From Raillietiella orientalis (taxonomy: Eukaryota): 64,000 bases of DNA. The stretch spans positions 1,178,001 through 1,242,000 of the forward strand of contig JAYWIR010000008.1 of NCBI GenBank assembly GCA_036172245.1, written 5' to 3'. The notes under the pieces are model-generated. The model was not told the origin of the DNA. It worked only from the letters and a program-made list of their open reading frames with translations, and did not search any database. This document shows positions 32,390-64,000 of this stretch, piece after piece. The position numbers were made by a program, and so were the translations under genes. Each line of letters begins with the position of its first letter. Position 1 is the first letter of the stretch.

Positions 32390-34015
32390 ATGGCCTTCAG
32401 CGATTACTTTGTAAGGAACGACGACGAAGATTTGAATTTTGCGGGAGCGCGCGTGCTCTCCGGCGCTCGGCTACGCCGCCCGGGGGAAACGCCCTCCCAC
32501 CCCGCCCTGCGCTCCCAGGGATCGGCTGCTCTCTCGCCGTCTCCCGCGCGCATCCTGCTCCTCCGGCTTCTCCCCGAAGTCTCCAAGGGACCTTGTCGTG
32601 CCCTCCGTCCTGAGCGGGTGGTTGTGGAGGAGGCACACCGGGGTCAGCTCGCGGCACCTTCCTTTGGCAGGTTGCCGCTAGGCGCACGGGCGGCTCCATG
32701 AGCGGCCGGGCCGACCTCCGAGCATCCATATGGAGGACGCTCACCCGTGCGGCCCTCTCTTTGTCACCATGCTTCACCCTTCGGAACAATAGGAGGGTCC
32801 TCCAGGAGTAGAGGGGGAGGAAGCGGACCTGCTGACCTCAGGTCTGCCTGCTCCGTCCTGCGCCGGGACGACTTTCTGACTGTCGCCCAGCCACCCGGCA
32901 CGCAGGCCTTCGACTCCGCCAGCAATCTGCTCGCGGGCAGAAATGCCTCCGGGGCCTGCGCCGACCTAGTGGAATACGTGACCTCGCTACGGGTGAAGTC
33001 AGGAAATGTGGATGTTTCTCACATCCTGAGTGTGCGTGCGTATCCGTTTGCAACAGGAGTGCCGGCGCGAAAACTCCCGACGCCGCCCATCCCACTTTCA
33101 CTTCCCGGTGCCGCGGAAAGAAGGCAGCGGTCATTCGGTGTCCACGCTGCCGGCAGGCGGAGCTCTTCGACGCGCCTCCGTCCCTCAGGAGGGAGGTCAC
33201 GCACGCTGAGGCGGAAGCGTTCCGGAGCTCGCCGGGGGTTGCCACCCGGTCACGCCGGGGCGTTTATTTCTAAACTCTGTCTCCAACGTGGTACAAGGAC
33301 AATCAAGCATTGGACCTGCCGGGTCGCCGGTACGCAGACCGACGGGACTCACCTCGACAGCATAAGGGGATGCGAAAAAACAAAAAGAAAAATAAAACAA
33401 AAATACATAAAAAAAAGACTTTGGAGGGAAGGGAGGGGATCACTGCCCGCTGGAGGCGGGGTCCATCCTTCACAGGATCCTGGTCAGCTCGCCGGGGGTG
33501 GTCCTGATGCGCATTGCGCCGACGCCATCGTTCCGACTTCCCTCCGGTCGTCATGGCAAACCTGTTTCGAAGGTAGCGGCTAAGCCGGAACTCTCCGTCC
33601 AGGTATTCCCTCCCTCCCGGCGAAAGCGCATCCCGGCGAATCCCGAAGGTGCGCTCGAGAGGGGGAACCCTCGCGAAACCGTCACCCCGGAGTGATGGCG
33701 GGAGTTGCGGAGTCGCCGCTGGCACAGACGGTGCGGGCGTGTCCCTGGAGACCCGCGGAGAGGTTCGTCTCGCCGTCTGGAGCGCCCGGCCGGGTCGCTG
33801 CTGCCACTTATCGTTCGAGTGGAGCCCGCCCGTTCCCTTTCGCAGAGGTCGGCCAGGGGTCGAGGTCGCCCCTGGATGCGCGCATTCTCCGCGCATCCAG
33901 CGGCCGCGTGCCATGTTATCTTATCGTTCGGGTAACGTGGAGGACGCCACCGGGAAGGACGCCGCGCAGATTTCCTGGACCGCGGAGGACGGCGGCGGCG
34001 GCGTCCCCCTCTTGA
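32390..34015 (+). CDS. Putative orphan 5-exon gene, 200 aa, unknown function
   Basis: Exons 32390-32410 (MAFSDYF|gtaagg), 32671-32746, 32793-33031, 33476-33572 and 33846-34015. All junctions are GT-AG and phase-compatible (603 nt total), with one 46-nt intron typical of this genome. No recognisable domain. Confidence 0.35.
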
Positions 34016-35568: not shown

Positions 35569-38452
35569 ATGGCGCCCTCCGCCGTGCTGCCGCTGCTGCT
35601 GCTGGAGGTCGTCCAGGGATCGATCGCCGCAAGACATCCCGAAGTGCGGTAAGCCATGGTGCGGTAAGGCGAGCCCCACGCCCACCGCTCCGATCCCTGG
35701 ACAGCTCGCGCAAAGGGCGACCCGCTCTTCCTTGGGGATGGGCTGCCCCGGCGGCTTACCGATCCCTGTTCAGGAAGAGTCCCTTCCTCCTCCCTTCACC
35801 CCTCGCGGCTTCCACCCCCCATCCCTTCGTCTAGCGATGGGCCGGTGACCAGCGACCTGCCCCTTGCGACTCCGTGACTCCCCCCTCCCACCGGCGATCC
35901 CCAACCCGCCTCCTTCTCTACCTTCTCCTGGAGCGCTTGCCCTTACGCAGGTCCTCCTTCCTGAGGTAATCCCGAATGCCCTTGGGAGCACCGGGGACGG
36001 GGCCCTCCTTTTTCCGGGCTACATGGACGCCCTCTTTCCGGGGTCGAGAAGGCTCCGTGAGAGGGCGGCTAGCGGGGACGAGCGGGGCCTCCGAGGAACC
36101 GGCGGAAGGCACCCGCATGCCCCGCTGCTAGGTGACTTCCTCCAGGGGTGAGTTGGGCCGTTTCTCCTTCCTCACGATGCCCGAGAGCAGCTGGCCCTCC
36201 CGTCTCTCCTTAGCTTGCGCCCAAGGGTTTCGAGCGGTGAGGCGGCCAAGAGCGGGTCGGCCTGGGGTCCAAACCCGTGGAGGCAGGTCTCTGAAGGAAC
36301 CATGGCCCACGGGAGGGGGCGCACGTGATCGCGCGGGTCGTCCCTTCCAGGATACCCCTGCGGCTGGAATCTGCCCCCGTGGAGAGTGCCGAGCAGTTGG
36401 ACGACCTCCGCAAGGACACCAGTGCCAAGTGGGAGAACAGCATGCGGCTCTTCGGCTCGGAGAAGATCAACGACATGTACCGCGTTCCCCTGATGGAGAA
36501 GGCCGGGGTGAGCGACTTCCCGGGGCCGGCAGGGGTGGTTGAGGAGGAGGAGGAGGAGGAAGAGCGCAGCTGGCGCCAGCATCGCTCCCTCCTTTTCCTG
36601 CTCTGGAGCCCTGGCTTTCCCGAGGGGATTTCCTCCTCCTTCGTCCTTTTCCAGGTGCAGATCATCACCGGCCCCTTCCAGGCGGGTACCCCCCCGCAGA
36701 ACTTCACGGTGCGGTTCGACACAGGGGCGCAGTCCACGGCGCTGCTGTCCTCCAAATGCTCTAAGAATGTCTGCCGTGAGTGCGGGACCGGCCCGGGGAG
36801 GGAGCCAGCAGAGGGGGCAGCGGAGGTCACTTCCAGTGACCAGGTTCGGCTACGACCATTCCATCTCGTCCACGTTCCAGTCAGGAAAGAAGACCTTCCG
36901 GCTGTCCTTTTCCAATCTGGTAGTGTCGGCCCTGCTCGCCACGGACGCGGTCAACGTGAGTGCCGGCGCCCGCGCGGAGGAAAGGGCCGCAGGAGGAGGG
37001 GAGGGAAGGGATTGCTTTCCGTCCCTCCCTCCCGCCTCTCCCAGAACGCCCCGCACCTCCTCTTCCCGAAAAGAGTCCGAGAAGAGTCCTTTCCTCCCTC
37101 CGTGGCCGGTTCCGACGTCCGACAGACGGACAACGGATGGGAAAAGCACGGGGCATTTCCCTCGGCAACCGGAGCGCGCGCTCGCTGCTTCCCGCATGGG
37201 GTTGACCCCCCTCCAGGTGGCACACACCGTCCTGGAGAACTTCACGTTTGGGGAGATCATGCAGGTGAAGGGTCTGAAGCCCGTCTACTGCTTCGACGGG
37301 CTCGTGGGGCTGGGCAACTTCCCCCCCTCCCGAGTGAAGAATCAGCAGTTCTCCATCTTCTTCTCGAGGTTCGTCGCCAAGACGAGGATAGCGCCACTCT
37401 TCGGAATCTACCTTAACAGGTAGCGGCCCTCGACCCCTGCCCCAGGTTCCTATACCCCCGCGCACGCTCATCTGAACTTTTCAGGGATCCCAGGAAACCA
37501 GGAGAGCTTCTCCTGGGAGGGTACCACAAGGACAGAATAGAGGGCACCCTCACCAAGGTCAGGACCCTTCAAAGGGTGCTGTGGAGGATCCCCGTGGACA
37601 GGTGAGTACACCGCCGGGATCGGAAGGGGGAGGAGGCACACGCCACGTTCCATCCTCCCCTTCCCCCCCTCCTACCGCCTCTGAGAGCGAACCCCGCCTT
37701 TTCCCTCTTTTCCGTGCCAGCATCACCGTCGGGTCCAGGAGACCTGGGAGACATAGCCACGACCTCTGCGCGCAGGAGCGCTGCTCTGCGGTCTTCGACA
37801 TGGAGACGTCCCTCATCCTGGGGCCAGCTGCTCAGGTCACCAATCTGAACCGTCGCCTGGGGTCGCGTCGCCTCGTCAACGGAATCTTCACGGTAATTCC
37901 TCGGGAGAGGAGCGGTGGCGCAACTTCCTTCTTCCTCTTCCCTTACTCCTCCTTTCCTTCTCCTCTTTCTCTTCCTCCTCCTCCCTTCCTCCCCCTTCTC
38001 CTCCCTTTCCCTCCCCGGCCACTTCCCGCGGGGCTGCCCCTCCCCCTCCTTCGCTGACGCCTCTCCTCCGCTCCCACCATTCACGGAAGGCCAGCCATGC
38101 TCCCCTTGCCCCCCCTTTCCGGCTGTTCCAGTTCGACTGCCGCAAGGCCACCAGTCTGCCCCCGGTGACCTTCACGATCGGCAGCCGCCCCTTCCAGCTG
38201 TGGTTCAACGACTATGTGATTTTCGTAAGGCCGTCCCCCCCCCTTCCTCCCTCGCCACTCCCTCCCCACCTTCCCTCGCAGAAGCAGATCGGGTCAGTCA
38301 ACCTCTGCCTGAGCGGCTTCGGCGTCCTCGACAGCTTCAACGGCAGCGGGATGTGGATCCTGGGGACGCAGTTCACCAAGAAGTACTACAGCGTCTACGA
38401 TACGCTGGAGGGGTCGGTCAGCCTGGGACTGGCCAGGCACAGCATCTTCTGA
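35569..38452 (+). CDS. Secreted pepsin/cathepsin D-family (A1) aspartic protease homolog with degenerate active-site motifs
   Basis: Nine exons: 35569-35648, 36351-36507, 36655-36775, 36837-36955, 37217-37419, 37485-37601, 37721-37892, 38132-38224 and 38282-38452. Signal peptide MAPSAVLPLLLLEVVQG, then RIPL, GTPPQNFTVRFDTG, FDGLVGLG, GELLLGG, CSAVFDMETSLILGP, CLSGF and WILGTQFTKKYYSVYD. Confidence 0.88.
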
Positions 38453-40780: not shown

Positions 40781-43700
40781 TTATTCCTGGAGGACGCCGC
40801 GGAAGAGTGGCTCGATGACCTCCGGATTATCCAGGGTGCTGAGATCGCCGAGGTCGCGATCGTTGTTGGCGATGCGGCGTAGCAGCCTGCGCATGGTCTT
40901 GCTGGAGCGCGTCTTGGGCAAGGCGGCAGCCACGTGGATGAAGTCGGGCATGGCGAGGGCGCCGATCCTGTTGCGCACTGGGAGAGAAGGGCGGGGCCAG
41001 TGAGCAGGCGAGGGTCGCAGCACCTCCACTTTCCCCCTCCCCCCTAATTCCCGCCCGGCTCCGCTCACCGATCTGCCTCAGCTCCCAGGTCTGCTCATCG
41101 CTCCAGGTGACGCCCTCCAAGGGCACCACAAAGCAGTACATGCACTGGCCCTTCACGGAGTGGGTCCGGGAGACCGCGACGACCTCGGACACGGCCGGGT
41201 GTTCCGCCAACACCGCCTCGACCTGCGCCGTGCTCAGCAGGTGGCCTGAGATGTTGAGGGTGTCGTCCACGCGCCCCATGATCCACACGTACCCATCCTC
41301 GTCGCGGTAGGCTCCTGGAGAGGGAGGAGGGGTCAGGGAAGGAGAGAGTGGGGACGGGGGGTGGAGGAGGAGGGCTCCCCTTCTCACCGTCGCCGCAGAA
41401 GTAGGAACCAGGGAACCTGCTGAAGTAGGTGCTCTGGAAGCGCTCGTGGTCCCCGTGCAGAGTCCGTAACATCCCGGGCCAGGGAGCGCGGAAGACGAGG
41501 CTGCCCGACTCGCCCGAAGGGGCTTCGGTGCCGTCGTCGCGCAGGACGGCGGGTTGGACCCCGAAGAAGGGTACGGATGCCGACCCGGGCTTCATGGGCA
41601 CCGCCCCGGGCAGTGGGCTGATGACGTGACTGCCGGTCTCCGTCTGCCAGTAGGTGTCGACGATGGGGCAGCGGCATCGCCCCACGACGCGGTACAGCCA
41701 GTGCCAGCTGTCGGGGTGGATAGGCTCCCCGACCACCCCGAGCACCCGTAGGGACTTGAGCGAGTACCTGCGATGTAGGTCGTGGAAAAGGGAAGGAGAA
41801 GAGGAGGAAGAGGAGGAGAGGAGGAGGAGAGGTCAGGTAGGATGGGATCCCTTGCGCGCTCACCTCTGCACGATCTCTTCGCCCAGCTTCGCCATGGACC
41901 GGATGACTGTGGGCGACGTGTAGAACTTGGTCACCTGGTACCTGTCAATGATTTCCCACCACCTGCCTGGGTGAGGGTGGTGCGGCACGCCCTCGAACTG
42001 TCCGGAGGAGGAGGGATGGCCGGGTGAGACCGGAAAGGCTTTCGCCCAAACTCACCAGGACGCCCGTGGCGGCGTTCAGCAGCGGACCGTACACGCCCGA
42101 CGTGTGGCCGGTGATCCATCCGACGTCCGCCGTGGACCAAAAGACGTCATCGGCGTGCAGGTCGAAGACGTACTCGTGGGTCACTCCCGCGTAGACCATG
42201 TACCCTCCGGTGGCGTGGATCACCCCCTTGGGCTTCCCCGTGGAGCCACTGCCGGGGAACGGAAAGCGAAAAGTTGGGAGCGAAAGGGGGGGGAGGGCAG
42301 GGGCGCCGTGGCGAGAACCGCAACCCACCTGGTGTACAGCAGGAAGAGGGGGTCCTCCGCGCGTACCCACTCGGGGTCGCAGTCGGTGCTGGCCGCGGCC
42401 TGCAGCTCCTCCCAGTCGCCCATCCTCCTGACCTCCGCCTGGGGGCAAATGGATGGGGATGGGGACCTCCGCTATCCAGGATGGGGGGAAAGGGGCGGGG
42501 AAGGTGGCGCGTGGGGGGGGGGGGAAGCGTCCCTGCCCGTAGGTCTCCGCCTCCTCACCGCCCGCGAAAGAAACCGCCGGAGGACGGTTGGGTGGGAGGG
42601 ACGCGCCCTCCCCTCCCCCCCTTCGACCCCCTCGCGTCCCTGCTTTTTGGAGCATGAGACGAGCAGCACTCCGCTCTGGGAGCGGAGCAGTAATGGCCTT
42701 CCTGTCCGCGCGTTCTGGGGAAGAACGGGGCGACTCACCTCCCGTCCTCTGCTCGGCGCTCCCCGCTCGCGCGTGCGGTCCAGGAGGATGCAGCCGACAT
42801 CCAGTCCCGATGAGCGGCACTTCTCCAGGGCTGGGGAAGGAGAGCAGAAGAGAGGAGGGCGCGGGGGAGGGGCGCGCGCAGTACCTTGGACTGCCACGCT
42901 CTTCAGGTCTATGCGTTTCTGGCCCCGGTTGGTGACATCAGAAGTCAGCAGCAGCACGCACCGGGAGTCCAGCATCCTCTCCGCCAAGGAGTCCACGGAG
43001 AAGCCGGCGAACTAGGTGGGAAGGGGAGTAGGGGTCGATGGCGTCAAATGGCGAGGCCTTCGGGGAAAGAAGAGCCCGCCTATCCCATCCCCCCTTGCCC
43101 GACGGGCTTCCAGCGCTGAGGGAAAGAGGGTGAGGAAGGGAGGAGGGGGCGTCCGTCGGAGTCCCGGCTCTGCCCCGGGGATGCCCTCCAGGGAACGCGG
43201 TGCGTCCTCCACGCCCCCGAGGGTCGGAAAGGGTGGGGGGAGAAAGGGGAGAGCGGGGGCAGGTCGGCGGACAGCAGAGTGGCGGAATCCATCCTCTAGC
43301 CTTGAACGCCCGCCGACCCGGAACGGCAGGGTCGCGTTCGGCGCATTCCGCCGCCCGCGGGATTACTGTCTGCTTTCCCCGCTCGCCCCTACCTCCTCCG
43401 GATGGCCCCCGGGAGGGAGGCGCGCGCACACCAACCACGCAAGTGTGGACGGCTCCGATCCTGGCGCAAGCCAGCATGGCGACGACGGTTTCCGGGACAA
43501 CGGGCATGTAGATGGCCACGCAGTCCCCGCGCCTCACGCCCTCGGCCTTGAGGACGTTGGCGAACCTGCAGACGCTCCGGAGCAGCTCCTCGTAAGTCAG
43601 CGTCCTCCTCTCGCTGGGGTCGTTGCCCTCCCTGGGGTGCGGAGAGACTCTCTCTCGTCCGCCTCCACGAGGGGGAGGGGGAGGCGGCAGCAGGGCCCCC

Positions 43701-45654
43701 GGGGCCTCACCAGTAGTAGGCGACCTTGCTCCCGTGCTCCTGCGCGTGCCGGTCCAGGGCGTTGTAGCAGACGTTGGTGAGGGCGCCGCCGAACCACGTG
43801 GCGAAGACCGGCCCCTTGGAGGCATCGAAGTTGTAGCTGAGGATGGGGCCCGAGGGAGGTGCCTGCCAGTGGAACCCCTCCGCCATCTTCTTCCAGAAGG
43901 CCTGCGGGTCCGACACGGAGGCCTTGTAGAGTTTCCTGTAATCGGCCATCGACTTGACCCGGGCCGCCCTCACGACCTCCTCGGAGGGATAGTGCACGAA
44001 CTTGGGGAACAGGATTTCCGTCGAGAAGCTCCTCCGTGGCAACCGTGGCAGGCGAGGGCGCACCCCACGGGAGCTGGCGGAGAGACGAGCGGGTTAGCCC
44101 ACAGGAGCCGGCGGAAGAGGGAAGAAGCTGGAGAGGGCCGGCCCTTCCGAGGCAGATGGAAAGAGCGCCCCCTTTCTCCTCCTGCCTCGGGAGGGTGGTG
44201 CCCAGGAGCTCCGGCGCCGCGCGTCGAGCGGGCTCGTCGGTGGTGACACGACGCGAGCGGCGGCATCCGGGCAGCGGAGACCGGGCAAAGACAGGAAGGA
44301 CGAGGCGGCGAGGAAGCAGGGCAGCGGTTCGTGCCCGGCCCCTCCCTTCGATCCTTCCGCCTCCCGCCGCAGGGGAGTGGGACCATGCACGCGGCGTCCG
44401 AGGACGCAGTTGAACGGCGGGAGGTAGAGGGAACGAGAGCGACGGGAACGACAAGGGAAGGAAAGTCCACGGGAAACTTGGCCAGGGGCACCGCTGACTG
44501 GGAGGGCCGCCGACTCCCTCGGAAGTGGGAAAATTCCGGATGCGAACGGCAGAAGGACCTTTCCTTTTTCCCGGTCTGGCGTGGGGCTCTGCGCGCCGGG
44601 GATGGACGGCGGAGTTCTGCGGGAAGGGGAGGCGGTGACCAACGGTTTCGAGGCAACGACCGGGGAAGGAATGTCGGAGCGCGGGAGCAGCCCTGTGGAC
44701 CGCCTTCTCGCCGGGCAGGGGAGCCCGGCGCGACCAAAAGCGAAGGAGGAAGGGCACCGCCCCAGGCGTCTGCGTGTTCTAGCCGGAGCATTGTCTCACC
44801 TGCAAGTAGCAACGTCCCTGCCTCTCCTCTGCCCCTCCCGCTGCCACGGGGCAACTCAGCCGGCTACCTCCGCCAGCGCGCCCTGGGCAGCGACCAGACC
44901 TCCCGTCCAGCGACCGAAGGCAGCGTGGGGAGGTTCCTGGTGCAGGGAGGTCGCCCGATGGGTCTCTTTCACTCCCACTTTGGTGGGGAAGGACGGACTG
45001 GGAGGGCTGCTTCCCAGTCTCCTCAGCAGGACAGAGAAGAAGGCGTGCCCGCTGACCCGTCTCCCCAGTAACTCGGCAGGCTGAGGGAAGGGACCCATCG
45101 CCCGCGGTGCCTGGAATGCTTTTGGCGACTCTCCCGGATTATGAGAGGGGGGGGGGAAGGATACGGGGCAGGAGGGCTTCTAAGGGAGGAAGAATGGGAG
45201 GACGCGAGATGCACCCCGTCGCGAAGCTGCGTCTTGTCCTGCGAGCGGAACTTCTGGGAGCTTCTCCTCCCCCTCCTCCCTTTTCCCCGAGGTAGCGGCC
45301 CTCCCCTCGGACCCCTCCCCCGAACCGGTACCGGGGAAGAGGATCTTCCTCCTCTCATCCTTCCTCTCCTTGTGGTCCAGGAGCGCGCGCCTCTTCCTGT
45401 GGTGGGAGAAATGCATCCCTGTCGGGTCCCCGGGACGGAAACTAAGGTCTCCTGTCTCTTCCTGGAGAAGCGGAAAGGAGGGGTTGGGCGACCCTCCTTA
45501 CTTCTCCGGGAGGAAGGGAGGCGGGGGAGAATCGCGAGGGAAGGAATGATGGGATCGGCACTGACCTTGAACGCGCGTCCTCGCTGATGAGCGGCTGTGT
45601 GGTGCGAAGGCGTGACGTCACCGCCCGCAGTTCGACAAACGGCAGCTTCCACAT
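40781..45654 (-). CDS. Acetyl-CoA synthetase paralog A (ACSS2-like), complete
   Basis: Exons 44073-43711, 43631-43436, 43011-42885, 42830-42739, 42438-42329, 42248-42056, 41997-41864, 41767-41388, 41313-41069 and 40977-40781, plus an inferred first exon 45654-45566 (gcggccATG, phase-2 donor AG|gtcagt). Motifs [60 protein letters not shown] and LPKTRSSK. Confidence 0.9.
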
Positions 45655-48301: not shown

Positions 48302-51300
48302 CTACTTGGGTCTCATCTCGTCCATGATGGAGTCGATCACCATGGTGTCCTCCAGGGTGGACAGGTCGCCCAGGTCCTTGTCCCGCCGCACGATCTTCCT
48401 TAGTAGCCGGCGCATGACCTTCCCGGAGCGCGTCTTCGGCAGGGCGGCCACGGACTGGACGTGGTCGGGCACGGCAAAGGCGCCAATCTTCTGCCTCACT
48501 GGAAGCGGGGAGACTCGACCTGCCGCACCAGCCCCCTTCTCCCTCCCCCTTCCCCCGGGCACCCGACGCACCCAGCAGCCTGCATTCCGCCGTCAGGGAC
48601 TCCGTCCACTCGATCCCCTCCATGGGCACCACGAAGCAGTACAGGGACTCTCCCTTGAGGGGGTGCGGCTGCGACACCGCCGCCACCTCCGCTATGAGCG
48701 CGTGCTCGGCCATGGCCCGCTCGACTTCGGCCGTGCTCATCAGGTGGCCGGAGACGTTCAGCATGTCGTCCACGCGGCCGGTGACCCAGAAGTAGCCATC
48801 GGCGTCCCGGAGTCCTCCTGGAACGGGGTCTCACGCGCCACCGTCTTCCACCTCCCTCCCGTACCCACCGTCTCCGAACCAGTAGGTCCCGGGGAACCGC
48901 GAGAAGTAGGCGCTCTCGAAGCGGCTGTGGTCCCCATGCAGAGTGGAGCACATGCCCGGCGGTGGGCTCCGGAGGACCAGGTTGCCCTCCTCCCCGCAGT
49001 GGGCCTCCGTTCCGTCCTCCCGGATGACGGAGACGTCCACGCCGAAGAAGGGGAGCGTGGCGCTTCCGGGTTTCGTGGGCGTGGCTCCTGGGAGCGGCGT
49101 GAGCACGGGACCTCCTGTCTCCGTCTGCCAGTAGGTGTCTACGATGGCGCAGTGGCCCTTGCCCACCCGATGATAGTACCACTGCCAGGCTTCGGGGCTT
49201 ATGGGCTCCCCGACGGTGCCAAGAACGCGGAGGGACTCCAGGGAGTACCTGATCCGCCCACGCGAGTCAGGAAGGGAAGGAAAAGGAGCGCCTCGCCTCG
49301 GGGCAGGCCGGGTGGCACTCACCGCTCCACGTGGTCGTCTCCATGTCTCATGAAGCTGCGGATGGCTGTCGGCGCGGTGTAGAACTTGGTGACGCCGAAG
49401 CGGTCGATGACCTCCCAGGGTCGGCCCGGATGCGGGTGGGAGAGCGTCCCATCGTACTGGAAGGGAGGGGAGTCGCTCGTCATGCGATGATGAGGAGATG
49501 GGGGTGGCAGGAAGGGGGAGGGAGGGAGAAGAGACGCACCAGAACGCTGGTGGCTCCATTGAGCAGGGGGCCGTACACCACGAAGGTGTGTCCCGTGACC
49601 CAGCCGACGTCGGCGGTGCACCAGTGCACGTCGTCCGGCCGGTGGTCGAAGACGTACCGGTGGGTGGTCCCGGCGTACACCATGTACCCTCCGGTGGTGT
49701 GGACCAGTCCCTTGGGCTGCCCCGTGGATCCGCTGCAGCCCGGAGGAGGGAAGAGTCCGGCCCCTCCCCCTCCCCGCTCACCTGGTGTACAGCAGGTAGA
49801 GGGGCTCGCAGGCATCCATCCACTGCGGCTCGCATAGGTCGCTAACGCCGTCGACCAGCTCCTCCCATAGGCGAAAGCGCCCCGGGGGGCCTGCCTGAAA
49901 GCTCCCGCAAGTGCACGCTGGGAGGAGGCGGTCTTGGGCCTCACCTGTACCTCCGAATCGGCCTTTCTCTTCAGGTAGTTCAGGATGATGCACGGCACGC
50001 GGAAGCCCATGGCCTCGCAGGAGCTGAGCGCTGCAGAAGGAGGGAGGAAAAGGGTCGGGTCACTCCCAGGGAGATCTCCGCCGCCCACCTGCGTTGGCTA
50101 TCTCCTTCAGGTTGATTAGCTTCTCCCCCCGGAAGAGCCCGTCAGCTGTGACCAGCAGGGAGCACCTCGAGTCGAGGATCCGCTTGGCGAGCGACTCCTG
50201 GGAGAACCCGGCGAACTGGAAGGAGAAAAAGGGGGTGTTTCCCCCCTCCAAAGGACAGGACGGAGAGGGGGGGATTGAGTCCATGTGCCCTGTTAGCGCT
50301 CCTCGGGAGCTCTCCCATGGACCGGGGGGGCCTGTCCCCTCTCCGCTGAGGGGGTTCGGTGAAGCCCTGGGGCGTGGAGCATCCCGACCTCTTCCCCCTT
50401 CCCCATGCGCCCGTCCCGTGGGGCTGGGTGACTGCCACAGAGCCTGCAGGTTGCCTTCGGGCGTGGTTTGACCGGCACCCTCAGAGCCGACTAGCGACGA
50501 CCCGCCCACGCACGTGACAGCCGGCAGAGAGGAATGGTAGGTCACGGACGGGTGCATCCGTGACCTTGGCGCCTAGAGAGTTCTGGAGAGGAGGGTCCGG
50601 AGCTGCTCCTCCAGAGTAGGGTGCACTTTTCCCCTCCCCACTAGCCCTGCGAGGGTGCATCCCCTGCCCTACGGCGCCGCAAGGGTGTCTCTCCGAAGAC
50701 CCCCGAGAGGTTGGGGAAGGGAAGTGGCGTCGTGCCTTACCACCACGGAGTGGACCGCTCCGATGCGGGTGCACGCCAGCATCGCCACAACCAGCTCGGG
50801 GATGACCGGCATGTAGAGGGTCACGAAGTCCCCGCGGCGGACGCCCGCGTCCTTGAGAACATTGGCGAAGACGCACACGCGCCTCAGCAGCTCCTCGTAC
50901 GTGAGGGCATCCTCGCGCTTTCCGTCGCCCGTGAAGCTGAAGGCCAGAGTTGACGCGGGAGGCAGGGTCTCCTTTACCAGTAGTAGGCGACCTTGGACCC
51001 CAGCCCGTTGACCTGGATGTTGTGGTCCAGGGCGCTGTACGACACGTTCGTCCGTCCGCTCCCAAACCACCGGATGTACACGGGGCCCTCCTGCTTGTCA
51101 AAGTTGAAGTCCAGGAAGGGTACTTCTGGGGATCTCTCCCAGAAGTACTTCCTGGCCTCGCGGCCCCAGAAGACCTCCGGTTGCCGCAGCGACAGGTTGT
51201 ACAGGTCCCGGTACTCCTCCATGGACTTCACGTGGGCCTCCCTGGAGATGCGCTCGGGGGGCTGGTAGACCTCACCTCTCGAGAACGCCCTCCTGGCAGC

Positions 51301-54300: not shown

Positions 54301-55170
54301 AGAGCTTTCACTGCTTTTGGCACCGCGAACCTGCTTAAAAATAAAAACCTGGCGAGCTCCCAAACCAAAAGCGCGCCGAGGTGCACGCGTTTTGGAAGGT
54401 GCACGGTGCACGCGTTGGAAGAGTCCATGGGACTTCCTGAGCGCGATCGCTTCCGCCGCGTCGTAATCGACCGGAGGCGGACGCACGCACGCGCGCGCGT
54501 GCAGCATTCTTCAGCGTGAACGCGCGCGGAGAGCCGAGGTGGGCATGCGGGTGCGCTGCGACCAGGCGCCGAGCAGAGGGCGGCGCGCCGATGTCGGAGA
54601 GGGTTGGATGGAAGCAGGGATTTGCTAAGTTCTTTCTTACAGAGCGTGGAGCAGAGACGCCAACGGCGGAAGGAAAGGGTGGGGCGCCCCAAGGCATCGA
54701 TACGGGAAGCACCGCGCACATAGACTCCCCCACCCCCTTCACCCCTGGAACCAAGCATAGAATTCTTATTGGGAGATGCCCGCTCGAAGCCTCCTCGACC
54801 CACTCTCGATGCTTTTCGAGAGTGGGTCCTGGGGTTCGTCTCTTCTTTCCCTGGTGCTGCTCTTAGGGTCTTCGGCTCACCCTTCCTCCTTTCCTTCTTC
54901 CCTTTCGCTTTCCAGAGAGGAACGGCACATTTCTCGCCCGCGTGCTGTTCCGACAAGCTCGTGCTGAGTTGACCTGCGACGCGTTCCAAGGACTGCGAGA
55001 CGCAGTGGTCCCTCGCAGGACGATCGTGCAGAAAGGTCTCTTGCGAAAAATCTTTCCATCCGCCCGCTTATCGAGGCGTCCATCAAGGAATTCCCAAGGC
55101 ACTTTCCCCCCCTCCCAACCTCCGTTTTTTTTCATCCTTCCGTTTAGGCGTGCGAATCCCCCCCCCCCCC

Positions 55171-55177
55171 AAAAAAA

Positions 55178-55207
<30 letters not shown>
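55171..55207. repeat. Poly(A) run followed by (CA)n
   Basis: About 24 A followed by CA repeats, preceded by a C run. Confidence 0.85.
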
Positions 55208-55210
<3 letters not shown>

Positions 55211-55823
55211 GAGCATGCAGGCGCGAGAGTTGCAACCGTCAGCACCACGTAGCGGCTCGACAAAGCGCTCTCGACAGGAGAAAAAAAAAGATGGAAGAGC
55301 CGAAACACAGCTTACCTAATGGACCAGGGGTGGTCCACCTTACGAAGCGTGCATCCCTTGCTGAGAAGAAAAGGCAGCAGCTGCATCTGCAAAATCATGA
55401 TGTCAGTGATTGTTCCGGGTCATCGGAAAACTTGCTCCCTCCCTCCCCCCTCGTCCTCGTGGCCACCCGAATGCCCCGCCCGACACGGTTGGGGAATCGG
55501 AAGGCGTCCGAGAGACAGACCTCCCAGCGAGAGCTGCCGTGGGGCAGCGAGTCGATCACCCGCGTGATTCGACGGGAGAGAAAGCCGCGGACGCATCCCA
55601 TCATCTTCGAGGACCGCACGGAGGTACCGGCGGGCAGGGAACAGGACAGAGGAACTGATCATCACGATCCGAGCAGATCCACGAGTTTGTTTGTTTTCTC
55701 TCTCTCTCTCGGCGGACGCGGGGGAGCCGAGCGGCCAGCACCGAGCCTCGGACCACACTTGCGGAGCCAAGGAGACGCAGCGAGGCTCCTGACCAATCTG
55801 CGCGCGCCATCAACAATGCCGCG

Positions 55824-55895
55824 TTTTCTTTTTTTCCTTTTTCCTTTTTTTTTTTTTTTTTTCTTTTTTTACCTTTTTTTTTTTTTTTTTTTTTT
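55824..55895. repeat. Poly(T)-rich low-complexity tract
   Basis: About 70 nt of almost pure T. Confidence 0.85.
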
Positions 55896-58886
55896 CGAGC
55901 AAGCATATGCGTCTCCTTCCGCATACCTGATCTGGTCTTTGGGTTTGCTTCTTTCTTTCTTTTTTTCCTCCCTCCTTCCATTGCTCCCTTCCACTCCACC
56001 CCACCCATCCTTCCTGCCTTTCCTTTTTTGTCTCCTCCTTCCGGAACACGGAGGTTCCGTCCTCGGAGGATGGACGCGGCTGTCCACGCCTCTCTCGGCT
56101 CGCGCGTTTCCCACGCGAGGTTTTGCGCTGCGAAGGCTGCGAAGGACGGATTCGAGTTGCCGGAGACGGCCCCCCCTTCCTCCTTCTCCTTTCTCTCCGC
56201 CTCGCTGCGCAGACTGCCCCGCCGTTGTGCTTTCGAGGCGTGCCGTCCGCATCGCCTCTGCCACCACCGCTGCGTCGTCATACGGTCTTCCCGAGAAACC
56301 CTCCCGCTCGAGCGAGAGAGATCAACGGCCGGCAGCACGGGCATGGCGAAGCGGGCGCTCTCTTGAGAACGCAGCGCTGGACCAGGGACTTCCTCAAACG
56401 ACCTCCGGCAGAGGAGGGCGGGGAGGAAACGGAACTCAACTCTCTCCTCCTCCTCCCTTCCTCCTTCTCTCGGCGCGCCGAGAACTCTTCGGACACATGG
56501 GAAACCGCTCGCTCGTTCCAGGGATCGCTCGCGACTGCCAAGGAAGCGGTTTCCAGGGAGATGGTATCGAAAACCACGCTAGGCAGGCGGGACAGCGCTT
56601 TCCCGAAGTCCAGATCCTCCTGGGAACTTCCGGTGTGCTGAGGAAGGGCTTTGCGTCACTTCCGGGGTGCCTCTGAAACGAATGGAACCCGGTTGACCTC
56701 GCAAGCAAATCCGGGTCACCCTCAGGGTTTGTCGTCCCTGAGTATGACTCCCTAAAGCCGTGTGTCGACCCGCGACCCTCCCCTTGCTGCCACATGCCCA
56801 CGAGGGGGTCCAGAAGCCAAGCGCGTGCTCCAGCGGGCAGTGAACGTGCAAGGATCAGTGAACGGCACCTGCAAGGATCGTCCCCTCCTGTAAGGAGCTG
56901 CCGCCTGGTGGCGCATCAGCGTAACTTGCGCTGCCTATGGCAGTCACGGCGGGAATGCTGCAGGGGTTCCTTCTTCAGCACGTCACCTTTTGCACGGGTA
57001 GGGAACGAGGGACACCCATCCTTTCGAAAAAAGAATCTCTCGGGTGGTCTCTCTCGGCTTCATCCCAGGGTCGGATCAACTTCCTCACCCCCTCCAGTCC
57101 CTCGTGGAACCCCTCCTGACGGACCGCAAGACCACACGGTGGTTCGCCCCGGAGTCTAGGTGGAGAGGACGGTCGTCGCATCCTCGGGCGCGAGTGTCAG
57201 CGCCTTCCGAAGGTGGAGTCCTCGTTCCCCGCGGGCGGTTCGGGGGAGGGAAGATCCTGAACCCCTACTTCGGCGCGCAGACGCCGTTCCTCCCTTCCTC
57301 CCCAGCGATGTCGCAGCGATGCGTCCTACGCCCGGGAGCACGGCGGTGCGCTCCTCCCTGGAGGGCCGGCAGTCCACAAGGCGCCCCTAGGGGACAGCGA
57401 AAATGGCCGTGCGGTTGCAGAGCCAGTGGGAGGTTCCACCTGTCGGGGTCACCCCCTCCCCTCCGCAGATGCCCGCTCTCCGTCGGGAGCAGAAGGTGCG
57501 GCAGACACTGCGTCGTACGCGCGCGGGTCATCCGGGAGTCGTCAAGGCCCTCGAGGAGGCGGGCGCTGAGTCTCGATCCCCATCACGGGATTGGACGTGG
57601 GAGAGGAGAGTCCAGAGAGTCTCCAGATGCTTTCGCGGATTAAGTTTTGCTTCCCACGCGGAATCGGCAGGAACGGGAGCGGCCCGTGGCTTCCGGGCTC
57701 GCCTGCGTTCCTGCTGCAGTGGGCTCTGTAGAAGCAGGGTGGCGAGGGGGGTGGGGAGAGAGACGCGCGCACCAACAAGTAGGAGGAAAGCGTTGCGGGA
57801 GAGGTCCGTTGGCGCCCTCCCCGGTAGGCTCCCTCCTCCTCCTCCTCCTGAGCGAAGAGCAGGAGGTCGAGGAGGTGGATGAAGCAGACGCGCGCGCGTC
57901 CTCTACCCCCTCGCCGCCCCGTTTTGCCGGGGTGCGCGACAGGAAGCCACGGTGCCCGGCGACTTCTCGTTCGGCACCGGGAATGGACGAGCCGCCCCCT
58001 CAGGGAGGACTCTGCGCCCCTCCCCGCGGATGGCGCGGATCCGAAGAACCAGAGACGCCACCCTCCCGGGTGGGAATGCACGAAAGATGCTGCGCGGGAA
58101 CGCGTGCTTTTCGCCAGCGGCGCTGCCTGACGATGGACGGCTGCCGACGAGCGGACCCGCAGTGGCGAGACCCAGCGTGAGCGAGCGACCGGCCACTCCA
58201 TAGCTGGAGGCTGGAGCGGATCGATACGGTCGCCCGTCCCAAGGAAGAAGGGTGCTGGCAGCCGCTGCCCAGGGACCAAACCATGGGGTAAAGGGGGAGG
58301 AACGGCAGACAGAAAGTTCCGAGGGGTCCCTCGTCCAGCTAGGAACGCATCTCCATCAAGTCTAGAGAGAAAGAGCCCCCACTTCGCCTCCCTTTCCCGG
58401 AGAACTGGCGTGGCGACGCTGGGCGGCGCCGGCATAACCTGAGCTCGGAGCGTAACCCGTCCGAACCGCTTCTCGCCGCAGGTCGAGCAGCTGAACGGAA
58501 CACGCACCAGCGGAGCAGCTGGAAAGGGCTCCCCGCTGGGGCCAGCGGGGATGCCAAGCCGTCGATCCTTTCAAAGCGGTACGCCCTTGTTCGTGGAGTC
58601 AAGTTGCAGCGGCGGAAGCCTCGTCTCCAGGCGACGCGTCCCAGTTTTTCCACAAAGTCATTGGCGGCAGTGTTCTCGTGACGTGAGCTCGTCGTCGTCA
58701 TTTCGTAGTAGTGTGGATACAGCAGTGGCGCGGCCCCTTTGAGAACGGAAGAAAGCTTGCGCCATTTTTGTTTTTTATTGTTGCCTTCCCATCGATTTCT
58801 CTGAATATTCATACGGCGCATCTCCCCCTCGCTACCTTCCCACGGTGATGTTTCACTCCCGAGAAGGCTGAGGGCGGCTGGCAGCC

Positions 58887-59996
58887 ATGGTCCGAGCCAT
58901 GGAAGACGCTCTCCCCGTCCGAAGGATCGCCCCCCCCAAACTGGGCCCCACCCACCTAAGGGAGAGGATAATCTGCTACCGTCCGATGAGGCACGGCGCC
59001 CCGGAGATGGGCGTCCGGGAAAAGGACGGCAAGGTGATCGCCAGCAACTACGGCCACGGCGGCAGCGGGTGGACCCTGGCGCCCAGCTGCGCCGACCACG
59101 TCATCGACCTGCTTGCGAATTCGAGCCATGGGGCCGAGTTCACGGGGAGCGCGCCGGTGACCGTGATAGGCGCAGGTGTTCTGGGACTGTTCACTGCCTA
59201 CTCCTTGCACCAGAAGGGTTTCCGCAACGTCACCATCGTTGCGGAGCAGTTCGACGGGATTGCATCCAGCTACGCGGGCAGCCTGCTGGCGCCGATGTCC
59301 ATGGACAACGACCAGGAAACGGAGGAAGTTCTCTTGGAGATAGAAATCGACGCTTACAAGTTCTACGAGTCCATCGCCAAGAAACAGCATCCTCACTTCA
59401 AGAGCGGGGTCGCCATCATTCCGGCCTACTTCGGCACCCGGGAGGATTCCGGCCTGGAACCCTACGTTGGTAGGGTCATGGGGCCGGCAAAAGAGGTGAC
59501 TATCGATTTTGGGAACGGCACAACGAGAAGAATGGTCGTGTACGACGACAGCATCTTCATCGACGCGAGCTCCATCATGGAGCAGCTTGCCGACCACCTG
59601 AAGGGGAGGGGGATAACGTTCCTCCAGAAGAGAGTCTCCTCGTTCGCCGAGCTCGAGGGCAAAGTAGTCTTCAATTGCGCCGGTCTCGGGGCGAGGGAGC
59701 TCAGCGGGGACGAGCGACTGGTGTCCGTCCAAGGTCACCTGATCATGTTGAAGGACCAGGACCGGGAGGAGCTGCAGTACATGCTACTGCACCGGTGCGA
59801 AGGGGGTGAAACCGCTTCAGGGCAAGGAGTGAAGCGTTGCGTCTACTTCTTCCCGAAGCGCATGCCGGACACCGGCATCGACGACGTCGGGGTAATTGGC
59901 GGCACCTTCATCGAAGGCGCGACCCCCGCCACACCCAACGAAGAGGAGTTCGCTGTTCTGCTCCAGAACGCCAGAGACTTCTTCGGGATTAAATGA
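58887..59996 (+). CDS. Intronless FAD-dependent D-amino-acid-oxidase-like protein, circularly permuted, 369 aa
   Basis: Single open ORF with Kozak context gcagccATGG. Motif order: CYRPMR, NYGHGGSGWTL, VTVIGAGVLGL (Rossmann), SSYAGSL, VFNCAGLGAREL, VQGHL, YFFP, IGGTF. Confidence 0.88.
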   Translation: MVRAMEDALPVRRIAPPKLGPTHLRERIICYRPMRHGAPEMGVREKDGKVIASNYGHGGSGWTLAPSCADHVIDLLANSSHGAEFTGSAPVTVIGAGVLGLFTAYSLHQKGFRNVTIVAEQFDGIASSYAGSLLAPMSMDNDQETEEVLLEIEIDAYKFYESIAKKQHPHFKSGVAIIPAYFGTREDSGLEPYVGRVMGPAKEVTIDFGNGTTRRMVVYDDSIFIDASSIMEQLADHLKGRGITFLQKRVSSFAELEGKVVFNCAGLGARELSGDERLVSVQGHLIMLKDQDREELQYMLLHRCEGGETASGQGVKRCVYFFPKRMPDTGIDDVGVIGGTFIEGATPATPNEEEFAVLLQNARDFFGIK

Positions 59997-62096
59997 TTTT
60001 CCCCTGCGATCCCGAGTCCCGGGACATTCCGTGGGTCACTACGTTTCAGCTGAGGGCTTTCCGGCAGTCGAAGACACGATGGCACCACGCTTCCTCCGGG
60101 ATCAACCAGAAGCGGAGGCGGAAGGGAGATGCTCTGCTCGCCTTCCAAGCTGGAGGAATCCGTGCGGCGGGGAAGGGCCACCCAGCAGGTGCGCCACGTC
60201 CCACTCCCGGAAGTCGAGAGAGAGAAAATATCACAGCGCAGGGGGACTGGGAGCAGAAAGAACGCGGGAGGCCGAACCCGCGAAGCGATCCTGGATGCGT
60301 CTCGGAAATTCCTGGCGTTCGGTATCGGGAGGGGGAGGGGGAAGCGGGCCCTCCTCGCGGCCAGGCGTGCCTCCTCGCGGGAGTCCGGCACCGATCGATC
60401 GTTGGGAAAGCTCAGACAGTAGGTAAACCCATCGTCGCCTCCGGGGTGCCACGGCAAACAGCCGGCCGCCGCCATGTTTGCGGACGCGGGAGGAATCCAA
60501 TTACGTGCCGGCCGCCTATGTTCTTGCGCCCTTCATGGGGTCGCGGCCCGCCCAAGTTCCGCATGAGCTGTGGAGTCAAGGGACGCGACTCCCCGCGGGA
60601 GGGCGGTGCAGAAACAGCTTTGCAGAGAGGCTGCTGAGTTGGCACGGTGGAATCGAGCCCCCATCGCAGCCTCTCGGTGGCGCACAAAAAAGGACCCATC
60701 TTCTCCTCGCCAGTCCATCTTCCTCTCCCCCTCCCTGCCTTCGCGCCCGACCCTCCCCAAGCCCACGGTTGGGCGGAGGGAGGCACGGATGACCCCCGTC
60801 CGGAGCGGCGGCCTCCGCACCCGCCGTTCGCGCATGCAAGCGAGCTGACGTTATGTCGCTCCAATTTTGCACCGGCAGGCGCGCCTGAGATGCGCCCTGA
60901 CCTCCCTCCTCCCTCGCCAATGCACCACGGGGAGAGCCGGCTCCGGCGTAGCTGACGCCCATCCCTCGGTCCCTCCGCATGCAAACGCAGGAGCTCGTCG
61001 TGCGCGCGCCCAGATGACCTTCGCTGTCGAAGTTCCATCACTTGGAGCTACGCACCCGAACCCGGAAGCAGCAGGCAGCTCCCTCCGACACATCCGGCGC
61101 CTCCTCCGCTGAGAGGGATCGGAGCTGAGACCTACCCGCTGTCCTCCACTTCCCTTCCCCTACCCCTCCCACACTCTTGAGAGGGGGGAAGTGGCACGCC
61201 TCGCTTCCTCCACGACCAGAGGTCAAGATTACTGAGAACCGCCCTCCGGAACACCGCCTGTGGTTCTTATCCTGCAGCCACGACCCCCCTAGTTGATCTT
61301 CCTCTCTTTCCCGCCCCCCCTTCCCTCAGCGAAGTCGGTCTCTCACCTCCTCGGGCACCACCCTACCCTTTGACCTGTTTCTCGTTCAGGAGGTCCTCCC
61401 CCGGGAGCAGCAGCTGTATGCGGTGCATGGGTCCAGGGGCCGGAGGAGCGTGGCAGCGAGGTGGGGCTTTTGGGATGCCCCTTGGATAGACGCAGCCGTC
61501 GGCGTCCTCCTCCGATGCGCAGCGGAAGGAAGCAGGAGCCCTGACCGCTTCCTTGTCGATGACCTCGGTGGTGCGCCCGGGAGAGAACCTCCGAAATCTA
61601 CAGAGGCGACCCGGGATATCCGGGGATGCCAGCTTCAGGGGGGCGAACCGGCCGCTCCAGGGAAAGTCACTACGGTAGACTGCACGACTCATCCGCCGCC
61701 CGTTTCCGTGGCTACGCGGGCGGAGGGGCGCCACGAGCGACCCTCGATCGAGCGCCCACCGGCCCGTGAGTATCCGCGCCAGCAAGCAGCTCGGAGGGGA
61801 AGGCCCGCTTTGCGGGGAGTTACTGCGGCGTATCCGTTTCCCGCCGAGGGACGTGCACTCCGAGCGTCCTCCCGCCCCCACGCCGGCGTCGGATCGCCGT
61901 ATCCTGGGCGACTGACCCCCCTCCTCGCTTTCCACGGTTTCCCTCGGAAACGAATGCAGCTCGAAAAGACCCGGGCTGCCTCGGGCCTTTCCCGCCTACG
62001 GCGCTCCAGGACCCTGCAGCCTCTCTCTACATCTCCCTCTTCATCCCCCTTTTATTTGCGACGGGTGGGCCAGCGCGGAAGGCAGGTTGGCTTGGG

Positions 62097-64000
62097 TCAT
62101 CTCGGAATCAGCCCGGAGACCAGGCTGTCAATGGCTGCCGGGTCCTCCAGGGTGGAGAGGTCGCCCAGGTCGGCGTCGCCACGCACGACGCAGCGCAGCA
62201 CCCGCCTCATGATCTTCCCGGACCTCGTCTTGGGCAGGATGCCGGTCACCTGGATGAAGTCGGGCGCCGCAAACGTGCCGATCCTGCGGGAGACTGCAAC
62301 CCACCCGTTGGGCCCTCGCGCCGCCGCCGCCGCCCCTCTCCGCCCACCCGCTCCCACACTGGGAGGAGGGGTGGACGAAGGCGACGGAGGGGCCGGCGGG
62401 CGAGGTGAGCAAGTTGGGATACGCCGAAGGGGAAGCTGCCGCCCCTCCTCCTCCTCGTCCTTCCGGGAGTAGGAATGGGAAGGGGGGGAGAGAAGGGAGG
62501 AGGGGAAGGGGAAACTCACCCAGCGTTCTGAGGTCCTCCAGGAGCTGCTCCTGGTGCCGGGTAGCAGTGCCCTCGATCGGCACGACGAAACAGTAGAGAG
62601 CCTCTCCCTTGACCGGGTGCAGGCGGGACACGGCAGCGGCCTCGGCGACGAGCGGGTGCTCCGTCAGTACACCCTCGATCTCCGCTGTGCTCAGTAGATG
62701 ACCCGACACGTTCACCATGTCATCCGTGCGGCCGGTGACCCAGAAGTAGCCGTCGGCGTCCCGGTAGGCTCCTGGCGAGAAGTGAATCGAGGGGGCTGCG
62801 TCCCCCACGCGCCCCTGGGCACAACGCACCATCGCCGCAAGAGTAGAATCCCGGGAACGACCGGAAATACAGGTCGGCGAAGCGCCCGTGGTCGCCGTGC
62901 AGGGTCATGGCCATGCCCGGGTTGGGGCGACGCAGAACGAGGGCGCCCGTCTCGCCCGTGGCGGCCTCCCGCCCGTCGCACTCTCTCAGGACGGACGCTT
63001 CCACGCCGAAGAAGGGCAGTGTGGCGCTGCCGGGCTTCGTGGGCGTGGCACCCGGGAGCGGAGCCAGCAGGGGCCCTCCAGTCTCCGTCTGCCAGTAGGT
63101 GTCCAGAACGGAACAGCGGCCCCTGCCCACGAACTGGTGGTACCAGCGCCACACCTCCGGACCGATGGGTTCTCCCGCGGTGCCCAGGATCTTCAGAGAC
63201 TCCAGGGAGCAGCTGGAAAGGAAGCAGGAACCCGGGTTCCTTTACCTTTGGAGTGACCCCAGCGAGACCCACCGGCCCAGTCCCTTTTCTCCGTGCTGCA
63301 TGAACGTGCGGATGGCCGTCGGCGCCGTGTAGAACTTGCTGACCTGGCACTGGTCCACGATGCTCCAGGCGCGGAAGGGGTCCGGGACGAAAAGGTTCCC
63401 CTCAAACTGCGCCACCCCCACCCTGACCCTCAGGCTAACCGTTCCACCCCTTCCTTCCCTCTGTCTTTACCAGAACGCTGGTGGCTCCGTTGAGCAGGGG
63501 GCCGTACACCACGAAGGTATGCCCCATGATCCAGCCGATGTCCGCGGTGCACCAGTGCACGTCGTCCGGCTGGTGGTCGAAGACGTAAGTGTGGGACACT
63601 CCTGCGTACACCATGTATCCGCCCACAGAGTGGACCAGTCCCTTGGGCTGCCCCATGGATCCGCTGGGTAAGAAAACGTTGTCACGAAGGCGCACAGCCA
63701 CCGCGCGCCCCCCAGGGGGGGGGATGGGAAAGAGGAGCCCCGGACCCGCTCTTCTTCCCTCCCCTCTCGCCCTCCTCCAGTAAGTGACCTCGGGGCCAAG
63801 CCAACAGGCTCATCCCTCACCCTACGGTGTGTCTCCCGGTGCTCAGGGGCAGGCAAGGGGAGGAGAGGAGGAGTTTCTGCGGAGGAAGAGACCCTCACTG
63901 CCCGCGCTGCTGACCTGGTGAACAGCAGGAAGAGGGGGTCGCAGGCGTCCACCCACTCGGGAGCGCAGTGCTTCTCGGCGCCCTCCATCAGCTCCTCCCA
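62097..64000 (-). CDS. Acetyl-CoA synthetase paralog C (ACSS2-like), 3' part; 5' end beyond the window
   Basis: Same intron positions as paralogs A and B. Motifs [66 protein letters not shown] and [12 protein letters not shown]; stop at 62097. Confidence 0.9.

Follow-up and report, generated by a model that had tools for sequence, protein, structure and literature searches.

A single unbroken open reading frame (ORF, 58887..59996, + strand) encoding a circularly permuted oxidoreductase of the D-amino acid oxidase (DAO) family, dependent on flavin adenine dinucleotide (FAD), was found in the window, a 64,000-nucleotide stretch of contig JAYWIR010000008.1 from Raillietiella orientalis. The ORF lay between two intron-bearing acetyl-CoA synthetase genes and started with an ATG in the context gccATGg, with an in-frame TGA five codons 5' of it. 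It contained no introns and was colinear with its bacterial homologues in alignment A1 (the 16 closest sequences). In the 369-residue product, the motifs CYRPMR (residues 30-35) and NYGHGGSGW (54-62) preceded GAGVLG (95-100), and the chain ended in FFGIK, 28 residues past GGTF. Judged by the consensus of the peroxisomal targeting signal type 1 (PTS1), this is not a canonical targeting end. The product matched the Pfam family DAO (PF01266) above the gathering threshold, with an E value of 7.9e-27 and 95.1 bits against a cut-off of 27.9, and the match spanned residues 91-366, which corresponded to profile positions 2-297 of 353. The NCBIfam scan of the product gave no equivalog, the top match being ThiO with 64.7 bits against a cut-off of 250.8. 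The length of the ORF alone was no proof of a gene, since the GC-rich half of the window held 967 stop-free frames, 9 of which reached 369 codons; as far as can be judged from the sequence, its status as a gene rests on homology. The first-pass annotation had described an intronless gene amid intron-rich neighbours, a good Kozak context, a permuted order of the DAO motifs and an end in GIK without a canonical PTS1, and all of these features were found.

Comparisons of sequence and structure showed that the ORF product is a true circular permutation relative to the solved oxidases. With phmmer against PDB sequences, residues 28-83 of the query aligned with residues 313-368 of the D-aspartate oxidase (DASPO) of Cryptococcus (9vpf), and residues 87-287 aligned with residues 22-227 of the DAO 8hy5. 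The family profile, which was built from 70 members, aligned with human DAO (2du8) in swapped pieces, profile positions 27-96 falling on residues 268-340, 101-160 on 3-69, and 232-298 on 136-205. The new termini are therefore placed at about DAO residues 268-271, and a short linker at about residues 78-90 of the window protein connects the old ones. The AlphaFold2 model of the product, for which the family alignment served as input, had a mean predicted local distance difference test (pLDDT) score of 95.5 and a predicted template modelling score of 0.93, with no segment below a pLDDT of 50 and with values of 96-98 across residues 11-80. Residues 89-369 of the model superposed on residues 1-271 of human DAO with a Z score of 20.4 and a root-mean-square deviation (rmsd) of 2.5 Å over 245 residues. 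Human, pig and fungal DAO together with DASPO were the top structural matches in VIA-align (Z 18.6-20.4, rmsd 2.5-3.3 Å, 245-254 residues), and the fructosyl-amine, sarcosine and glycine oxidases ranked below them (Z ≤17.5). Foldseek also returned DAO and DASPO chains first, with E values from 2.5e-11 to 1e-8. The predicted structure has the two-domain fold of the glutathione-reductase-2 type.

The permuted order is not peculiar to the window. When 5.8 billion proteins were searched by a word index, 805 of 6058 candidates matched at E ≤1e-3, and the best 120 of the 805, which are described here, were 52-65% identical to the window protein with 96-100% query coverage and lengths of 355-423 residues, and were colinear with it over residues ~9-369. 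Among 1.84 billion cluster representatives, searched exhaustively, 2039 matched at E ≤1e-3, of which 589 reached ≤1e-10 and 115 reached ≤1e-30; those of full length were colinear with query residues ~10-368. When one genome per prokaryote species was scanned, at least 601 pattern matches were obtained, at least 542 of them encoding a relative, and 80 were retained. The retained relatives came from Tisiphia, Cyrtobacter, Finniella and other alphaproteobacterial metagenome-assembled genomes (MAGs), from Babeliales/Dependentiae, Chlamydiae (~28-33% identity) and Endozoicomonas (31-32%), from a Polynucleobacter isolate (50%), and from many freshwater MAGs labelled with diverse phyla. Members of the family were annotated as "FAD-dependent oxidoreductase" or "D-amino-acid oxidase". 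The family occurs chiefly in intracellular bacteria (Rickettsiales, Holosporales, Dependentiae and Chlamydiae) and in freshwater plankton. By sequence comparison, the permutation predates the window gene and is the native order of this large bacterial family, in agreement with the first-pass annotation, which had linked such an order to bacterial FAD oxidoreductases. Two copies of the gene (L032 and L051) were observed on one chromosome of the Tisiphia endosymbiont of Nemotelus, at 641-654 kb and 702-716 kb; they were ~60 kb apart and had identical match statistics.

Within this family, the closest relatives of the window protein were found in Rickettsiales. The top three matches, which were ~65% identical to it (64-65%), belonged to Candidatus Tisiphia endosymbionts of two insects and to a "Rickettsia endosymbiont" of a sandfly, and no match closer than 65% identity was present among the best 120 of the 805. 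No eukaryote name appeared among these 120; all names shown were bacterial and most entries were nameless, about a quarter of the database being named. The window protein itself was absent from this database. The ten clusters that were looked up carried the names of Candidatus Bandiella numerosa or of Rickettsiales and Alphaproteobacteria MAGs, or had no name. Two trees were built, one with FastTree from 109 rows (P0001-P0050, every third of P0051-P0120 and the representatives P0121-P0160, each of 340-440 residues) and one with IQ-TREE under LG+C20 from 55 rows, including 32 named loci and 22 proteins. In both, the window protein was sister to the Tisiphia trio (P0001-P0003), with SH-like support of 97 in the former and SH-aLRT support of 97 in the latter. 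The trio and the window protein sat together within a clade rich in Rickettsiales and Holosporales, which contained Bandiella, Cyrtobacter, Finniella and Rickettsiales MAGs. Many residues were common only to the window protein and the trio, among them residues in CYRPMR, IA[SN]NYGHGG, GAGVLG, EIEIDAYKFY and GATPATPN[ED]EEF. Compositional attraction does not explain the grouping because the gene of the window protein is GC-rich and those of the trio are AT-rich. Bacterial best matches sharing the permutation had been named beforehand as the outcome that would support a bacterial origin, and this is what both the searches and the phylogeny gave.

The window protein differed from most of its bacterial relatives at the N-terminus. 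Over the first 35 residues, the maximum hydropathy in a 15-residue stretch was 0.25 in the window copy against 1.87-2.77 in four bacterial homologues, and in alignment A1 the window copy began exactly at the mature domain, with no hydrophobic leader. Most bacterial members carried an N-terminal leader, those of Rickettsiales type being Sec-like and hydrophobic as read by eye rather than by a signal-peptide predictor. Among 32 translated loci read in the same way, 9 had twin-arginine-like leaders and 3 had none (two from Polynucleobacter and one alphaproteobacterial MAG). It would be unusual for an FAD enzyme to be exported by way of a Sec-type leader. Without a signal peptide, the window copy would be intracellular in the host, unless an upstream exon supplies a signal. 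The type of leader appeared to follow lineage within the bacterial family: twin-arginine-like leaders were seen in L003, L005, L006, L009, L018, L031, L033, L037 and L048 (MAGs of Verrucomicrobiota, Actinomycetota, Bacteroidota, Chloroflexota and Patescibacteria), Sec-like leaders in L001, L004 and L032 (Rickettsiales type), and no leader in L007, L025 and L027.

The genes flanking the ORF were of animal type. The "ACS" genes named as flanks at the outset are acetyl-CoA synthetases, and both proved to be metazoan-type ACSS2 paralogues; a third member of the array lay further upstream (Table 1). Each was broken into 5-8 tblastn pieces with gaps of ~45-70 nt, and the three paralogues were 62-69% identical to one another and had short introns in common. 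Their spliced translations, which were approximate, formed one clade with support of 100, inside the ACSS2 clade of echinoderms, beetles and vertebrates (support 99), with the bacteria and a single green alga falling elsewhere, in a tree where non-animal eukaryotes were barely sampled. One synthetase exon was 59-69% identical to bacterial and animal proteins alike. The composition of the ORF was that of its surroundings. Its GC content was 0.607, its GC content at third codon positions (GC3) 0.80 and its observed/expected CpG ratio 1.0; the flanks had a GC content of 0.61-0.66 and the pooled synthetase exons a GC3 of 0.88, and thus the GC-rich third positions that had been noted as resembling the local DNA were confirmed. 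The Rickettsiales/Holosporales-type homologues L001, L004, L024, L032 and L051 had GC contents of 0.34-0.37 and GC3 of 0.23-0.26. The amino-acid composition of the window protein was shifted as well, with 29.8% of G+A+R+P against a mean of 24.5%, and 23.8% of F+Y+M+I+N+K against 30.8%. Within the present assembly, the ORF belongs to a eukaryotic genome.

Table 1. Positions of the oxidase gene, its segments and motifs, the synthetase array and the RidA/YjgF genes beside bacterial homologues. Coordinates refer to the window, except for those headed by a locus number.
Feature	Position	Strand	Basis or remark
Circularly permuted DAO-family FAD oxidoreductase gene	58887..59996	+	Single-exon ORF, 369 codons and stop
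Residues 1-85, C-terminal in canonical oxidases (human DAO ~268-340), here first	58887..59141	+	phmmer and profile alignment
CYRPMR	58974..58991	+	R32 aligned with human DAO R283, R35 with R286
NYGHGGSGW	59046..59072	+	Aligned with human DAO HNYGHGGYG 307-315; invariant in alignment A1
Residues 86-369, comprising a linker, the start of the Rossmann FAD-binding fold and the substrate domain; equivalent to canonical DAO residues 1-271	59142..59996	+	Structure superposition, Pfam
GAGVLG dinucleotide-binding (GxGxxG) motif	59169..59186	+	G95 invariant; G97 and G100 ≥90% conserved
Acetyl-CoA synthetase paralogue 1, third member of tandem array	40799..43997	-	Pfam, tblastn, tree
Acetyl-CoA synthetase paralogue 2, intron-bearing, upstream neighbour	48308..51276	-	Pfam ACAS_N, AMP-binding and AMP-binding_C on separate frames
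Acetyl-CoA synthetase paralogue 3, downstream neighbour, runs off window	62115..64000	-	Pfam, tblastn, tree
RidA/YjgF-family genes	L001:5283-5945; L002:5265-5822	-	Directly upstream of permuted oxidase gene

Other features were observed in the window besides the synthetase array. At a distance of 3 kb upstream of the ORF lay a poly-A/CA tract (55171-55213) and a 72-nt poly-T tract (55824-55895), separated by ~650 nt. A pepsin-type aspartyl protease gene with introns was recognised at ~36500-38450 on the + strand, in at least three frames that matched positions 5-40, 79-146 and 268-312 of the Pfam Asp profile. Long stop-free frames between 32.4 and 64 kb (567, 483 and 425 codons; e.g. 54973-56673, + strand) had no Pfam match and are probably by-products of a GC content of 65% and not genes. 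The GC content switched within ~150 bases at 32300-32500, from 30-50% over 1-32.3 kb to 56-69% from 32.4 kb on, and exon GC3 was ~0.27 on the AT side against ~0.88 on the GC side, with animal-type short-intron genes on both sides; the switch may be a natural boundary between isochores or a join made in assembly. The genes of the AT-rich half included Rad51, mitochondrial L27, TSR3, UQCRB and an ARMC5-like gene with ARM and BTB domains. No long homologue was found for the ARMC5-like exon, the matches in the ESM Atlas being generic ARM clusters only. An integrated giant virus was considered for the AT-rich half and was rejected in view of the housekeeping genes Rad51, mitochondrial L27, TSR3 and UQCRB. 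Rfam and tRNA scans of the 64-kb window gave nothing.

Several residues of the putative active site aligned with those of human DAO. In the profile alignment to 2du8, R32 corresponded to R283, R35 to R286 and NYGHGG to residues 308-313 (G59 to G313); R35 was invariant and R32 was at least 90% conserved in the 70 sequences. Y320 was aligned with Y228 and K316 with Y224, in a stretch of low posterior support, and R317 beside K316 was invariant in alignment A1. We take R283, Y228 and G313 of DAO to act in binding the carboxylate and amino group of the amino acid. In addition, a gene of the RidA/YjgF imine-deaminase family was located directly upstream of the homologue in 2 of the 12 bacterial loci examined. 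RidA/YjgF proteins deaminate imino acids, and this neighbour is therefore consistent with an imino-acid product. An FAD-dependent oxidation of an α-amino acid, most likely D-configured, to the imino acid is the activity that these features suggest, and we hold it with slight preference. The window protein would bind FAD via the Rossmann start at GAGVLG, R32 and Y320 would hold the carboxylate of the α-amino acid (probably in the D-configuration), and the amino acid would be oxidised to the imino acid, its electrons being taken up by O2 or some other acceptor. Since the protein has no signal peptide, this reaction would proceed inside the host cell and not in a periplasm. The extra arginine R317 gives a hint that the side chain of the substrate may be acidic.

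These observations are probably best explained by an old, constrained horizontal acquisition of the gene from a Tisiphia-like lineage of Rickettsiaceae by an animal-like eukaryote. The donor of the permuted D-amino-acid-oxidase-type gene would have been a Tisiphia-like member of the Rickettsiaceae, and the gene would have entered the host's nuclear genome within the tandem acetyl-CoA synthetase array. Afterwards, the bacterial export signal would have been lost, the local GC-rich composition acquired, and the gene kept intact under purifying selection. The first-pass annotation had suggested an old and domesticated bacterial gene, possibly from an endosymbiont. The endosymbiont sources of the nearest relatives support this proposal, and since the composition is fully ameliorated to that of the local DNA, "old and domesticated" fits.

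Several points weigh against this explanation or against the chemistry attached to it. Neither an AATAAA-type hexamer within 1.5 kb downstream of the ORF nor a TATA-like one in the 590 bp upstream was present. The branch of the window protein was long in both trees (0.56 and 0.86 against medians of 0.27 and 0.35), which could reflect relaxed constraint as well as the shift in composition. The alignment of Y224 with K316, next to the invariant R317, means that the substrate may differ from that of the classical DAO, and the remaining 10 of the 12 bacterial neighbourhoods shared nothing, so that no conserved operon was seen. No characterised member of the permuted family surfaced in full-text searches of the literature.

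The missing hexamers and the long terminal branch would also be compatible with a transferred gene that has fallen out of use and survives as an unexpressed relic, still open by chance, and long stop-free frames are common in GC-rich DNA. We regard this as unlikely, in view of how well the coding sequence was preserved. In comparison with 69 bacterial homologues, the window protein kept 26 of 26 columns conserved at ≥95%, 43 of 44 at 90% and 78 of 83 at 80%, and the five misses at the 80% level were conservative (G>S, I>V, L>I, G>S and A>V). There was no frameshift over 369 codons despite ~35% amino-acid divergence and a complete change in GC3, and the structural model was confident throughout. 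When a Tisiphia homologue was allowed to evolve neutrally from a GC content of 0.34 to 0.607, the reading frame was interrupted in all 500 replicates, by 9.7 in-frame stops on average; this simulation was crude, without indels and with an AT-rich donor assumed, and on that count lends the acquisition less support. From these results, we infer that purifying selection acted throughout amelioration.

A misjoined bacterial read or contig is a still less probable source of the ORF. Assemblies of invertebrates that carry endosymbionts often include bacterial DNA, the GC content switches abruptly at ~32.4 kb, and contigs of X1, a DNA run with 7% of the sampled words and the only public run found, no RNA run being listed, touched only scraps of the flanks on 55000-64000 and not the ORF, a result that was uninformative on assembly and expression. 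Against contamination, the ORF resembled its flanks in composition, unlike the genes of the nearest bacterial relatives, its product was 35% divergent from the closest known bacterial protein, the export signal was cleanly absent, and metazoan-type intron-bearing genes of like composition stood on both sides. Nothing bacterial was seen in the 7.5 kb upstream or the 2.1 kb downstream: the Pfam scan of both strands over 51.4-58.9 kb and 60.0-62.1 kb gave no domain, and in a tblastx comparison of the 10.7-kb flanks with 79 bacterial loci no high-scoring segment pair (HSP) above 45 bits lay outside the ORF (50 of 509 HSPs lay outside). Repeats and target-site duplications bracketing the ORF were searched for and none was found. 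Pile-ups of X1 contigs at 56.2-56.5, 57.7-58.0 and 62.2-62.5 kb suggest dispersed repeats in the flanks. Finally, an ancient, vertically inherited eukaryotic gene, or a transfer from a eukaryote to Tisiphia, is very improbable: nameless eukaryotic homologues could hide among the matches, only about a quarter of the database proteins being named, and the top ESM Atlas cluster was 89% and not 100% bacterial, but the window protein was nested several nodes deep among AT-rich bacterial members bearing export signals, the family spans many bacterial phyla, the gene has no introns, and none of the best 120 matches exceeded 65% identity.

The acquired gene, as we read it, can be compared with three kinds of known system. 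The first comprises the classical DAO and DASPO enzymes (EC 1.4.3.3 and 1.4.3.1; 2DU8 from human, 1KIF from pig, 7CT4 from Rasamsonia, 6RKF for human DASPO, and 9VPF from Cryptococcus). The window protein shared with them the two-domain FAD fold, the GxGxxG start, the RPxR arginine and the NYGHGG loop, and a tyrosine was aligned with Y228 in the stretch of low posterior support. In contrast to these enzymes, in which the Rossmann segment comes first and RPxR and HNYGHGG lie near the C-terminus, its chain began at about DAO residue 268 and ended at about 271, and the identity was ~20%. Unlike eukaryotic DAO, it had no PTS1-like end, FFGIK being the native end of the bacterial family. Thus the window protein is predicted to work like a D-amino-acid oxidase yet lies outside the classical DAO/DDO family because of its linear order, the ~20% identity, one apparently replaced tyrosine (K316 at Y224) and the lack of a PTS1.

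The second system is the permuted bacterial family itself, which has no name of its own. The window copy had the common F[FY]GIK C-terminus and kept all highly conserved columns, whereas it differed in lying in eukaryote-type DNA, in being GC-rich and in lacking the N-terminal signal. Judged from its residues, the window protein belongs fully to this family, the export signal being the only exception. Full-text literature searches, judged from titles and abstract openings and with subscription journals and supplements outside their scope, gave no description of a permuted DAO enzyme, and the papers listed on transfer from Tisiphia or Torix, judged in the same way, did not report the transfer of the present gene; no paper turned up on such transfer from Rickettsiales together with D-amino acid oxidase. 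The branch of enzymes and the transfer both appear to be undescribed, although the kind of event is already known. The window copy would also provide biochemistry with a signal-free, GC-rich and easily expressed version of the enzyme.

The third system is the small set of bacterial genes for cell-wall or D-amino-acid chemistry that animals have domesticated. The cases given in PMC3641634 were LdcA, AmiD and RlpA in aphids and Ddl in bdelloids, as cited there, and the candidates DapF and MurA in Trichoplax, and by that account such transfers are few and tend toward bacterial cell-wall or D-amino-acid chemistry. The terms "amino acid oxidase", "FAD" and "oxidoreductase" do not occur in the main text of PMC3641634. 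A fixed, ameliorated and constrained transfer would add to the picture of how hosts reuse the genes of their symbionts. A speculative extension, which we consider doubtful, is that an animal domesticated a rickettsial periplasmic flavoenzyme which shed its export signal and now serves in the cytosol to oxidise D-amino acids of bacteria or amino acids derived from peptidoglycan. Such an enzyme would be a host-side tool to control, feed on or sense intracellular bacteria, parallel to LdcA and AmiD of aphids, and on this reading it would be the first member of the circularly permuted D-amino-acid oxidase branch known from a eukaryote. As far as these cases are set out in the source, the present gene would resemble them in being a Rickettsiales-like or other bacterial gene that became fixed among host genes and has a function related to D-amino acids or peptidoglycan. 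It would differ from them in belonging to another enzyme family, in having gained neither an intron nor a eukaryotic targeting signal, and in being known here from its sequence alone.

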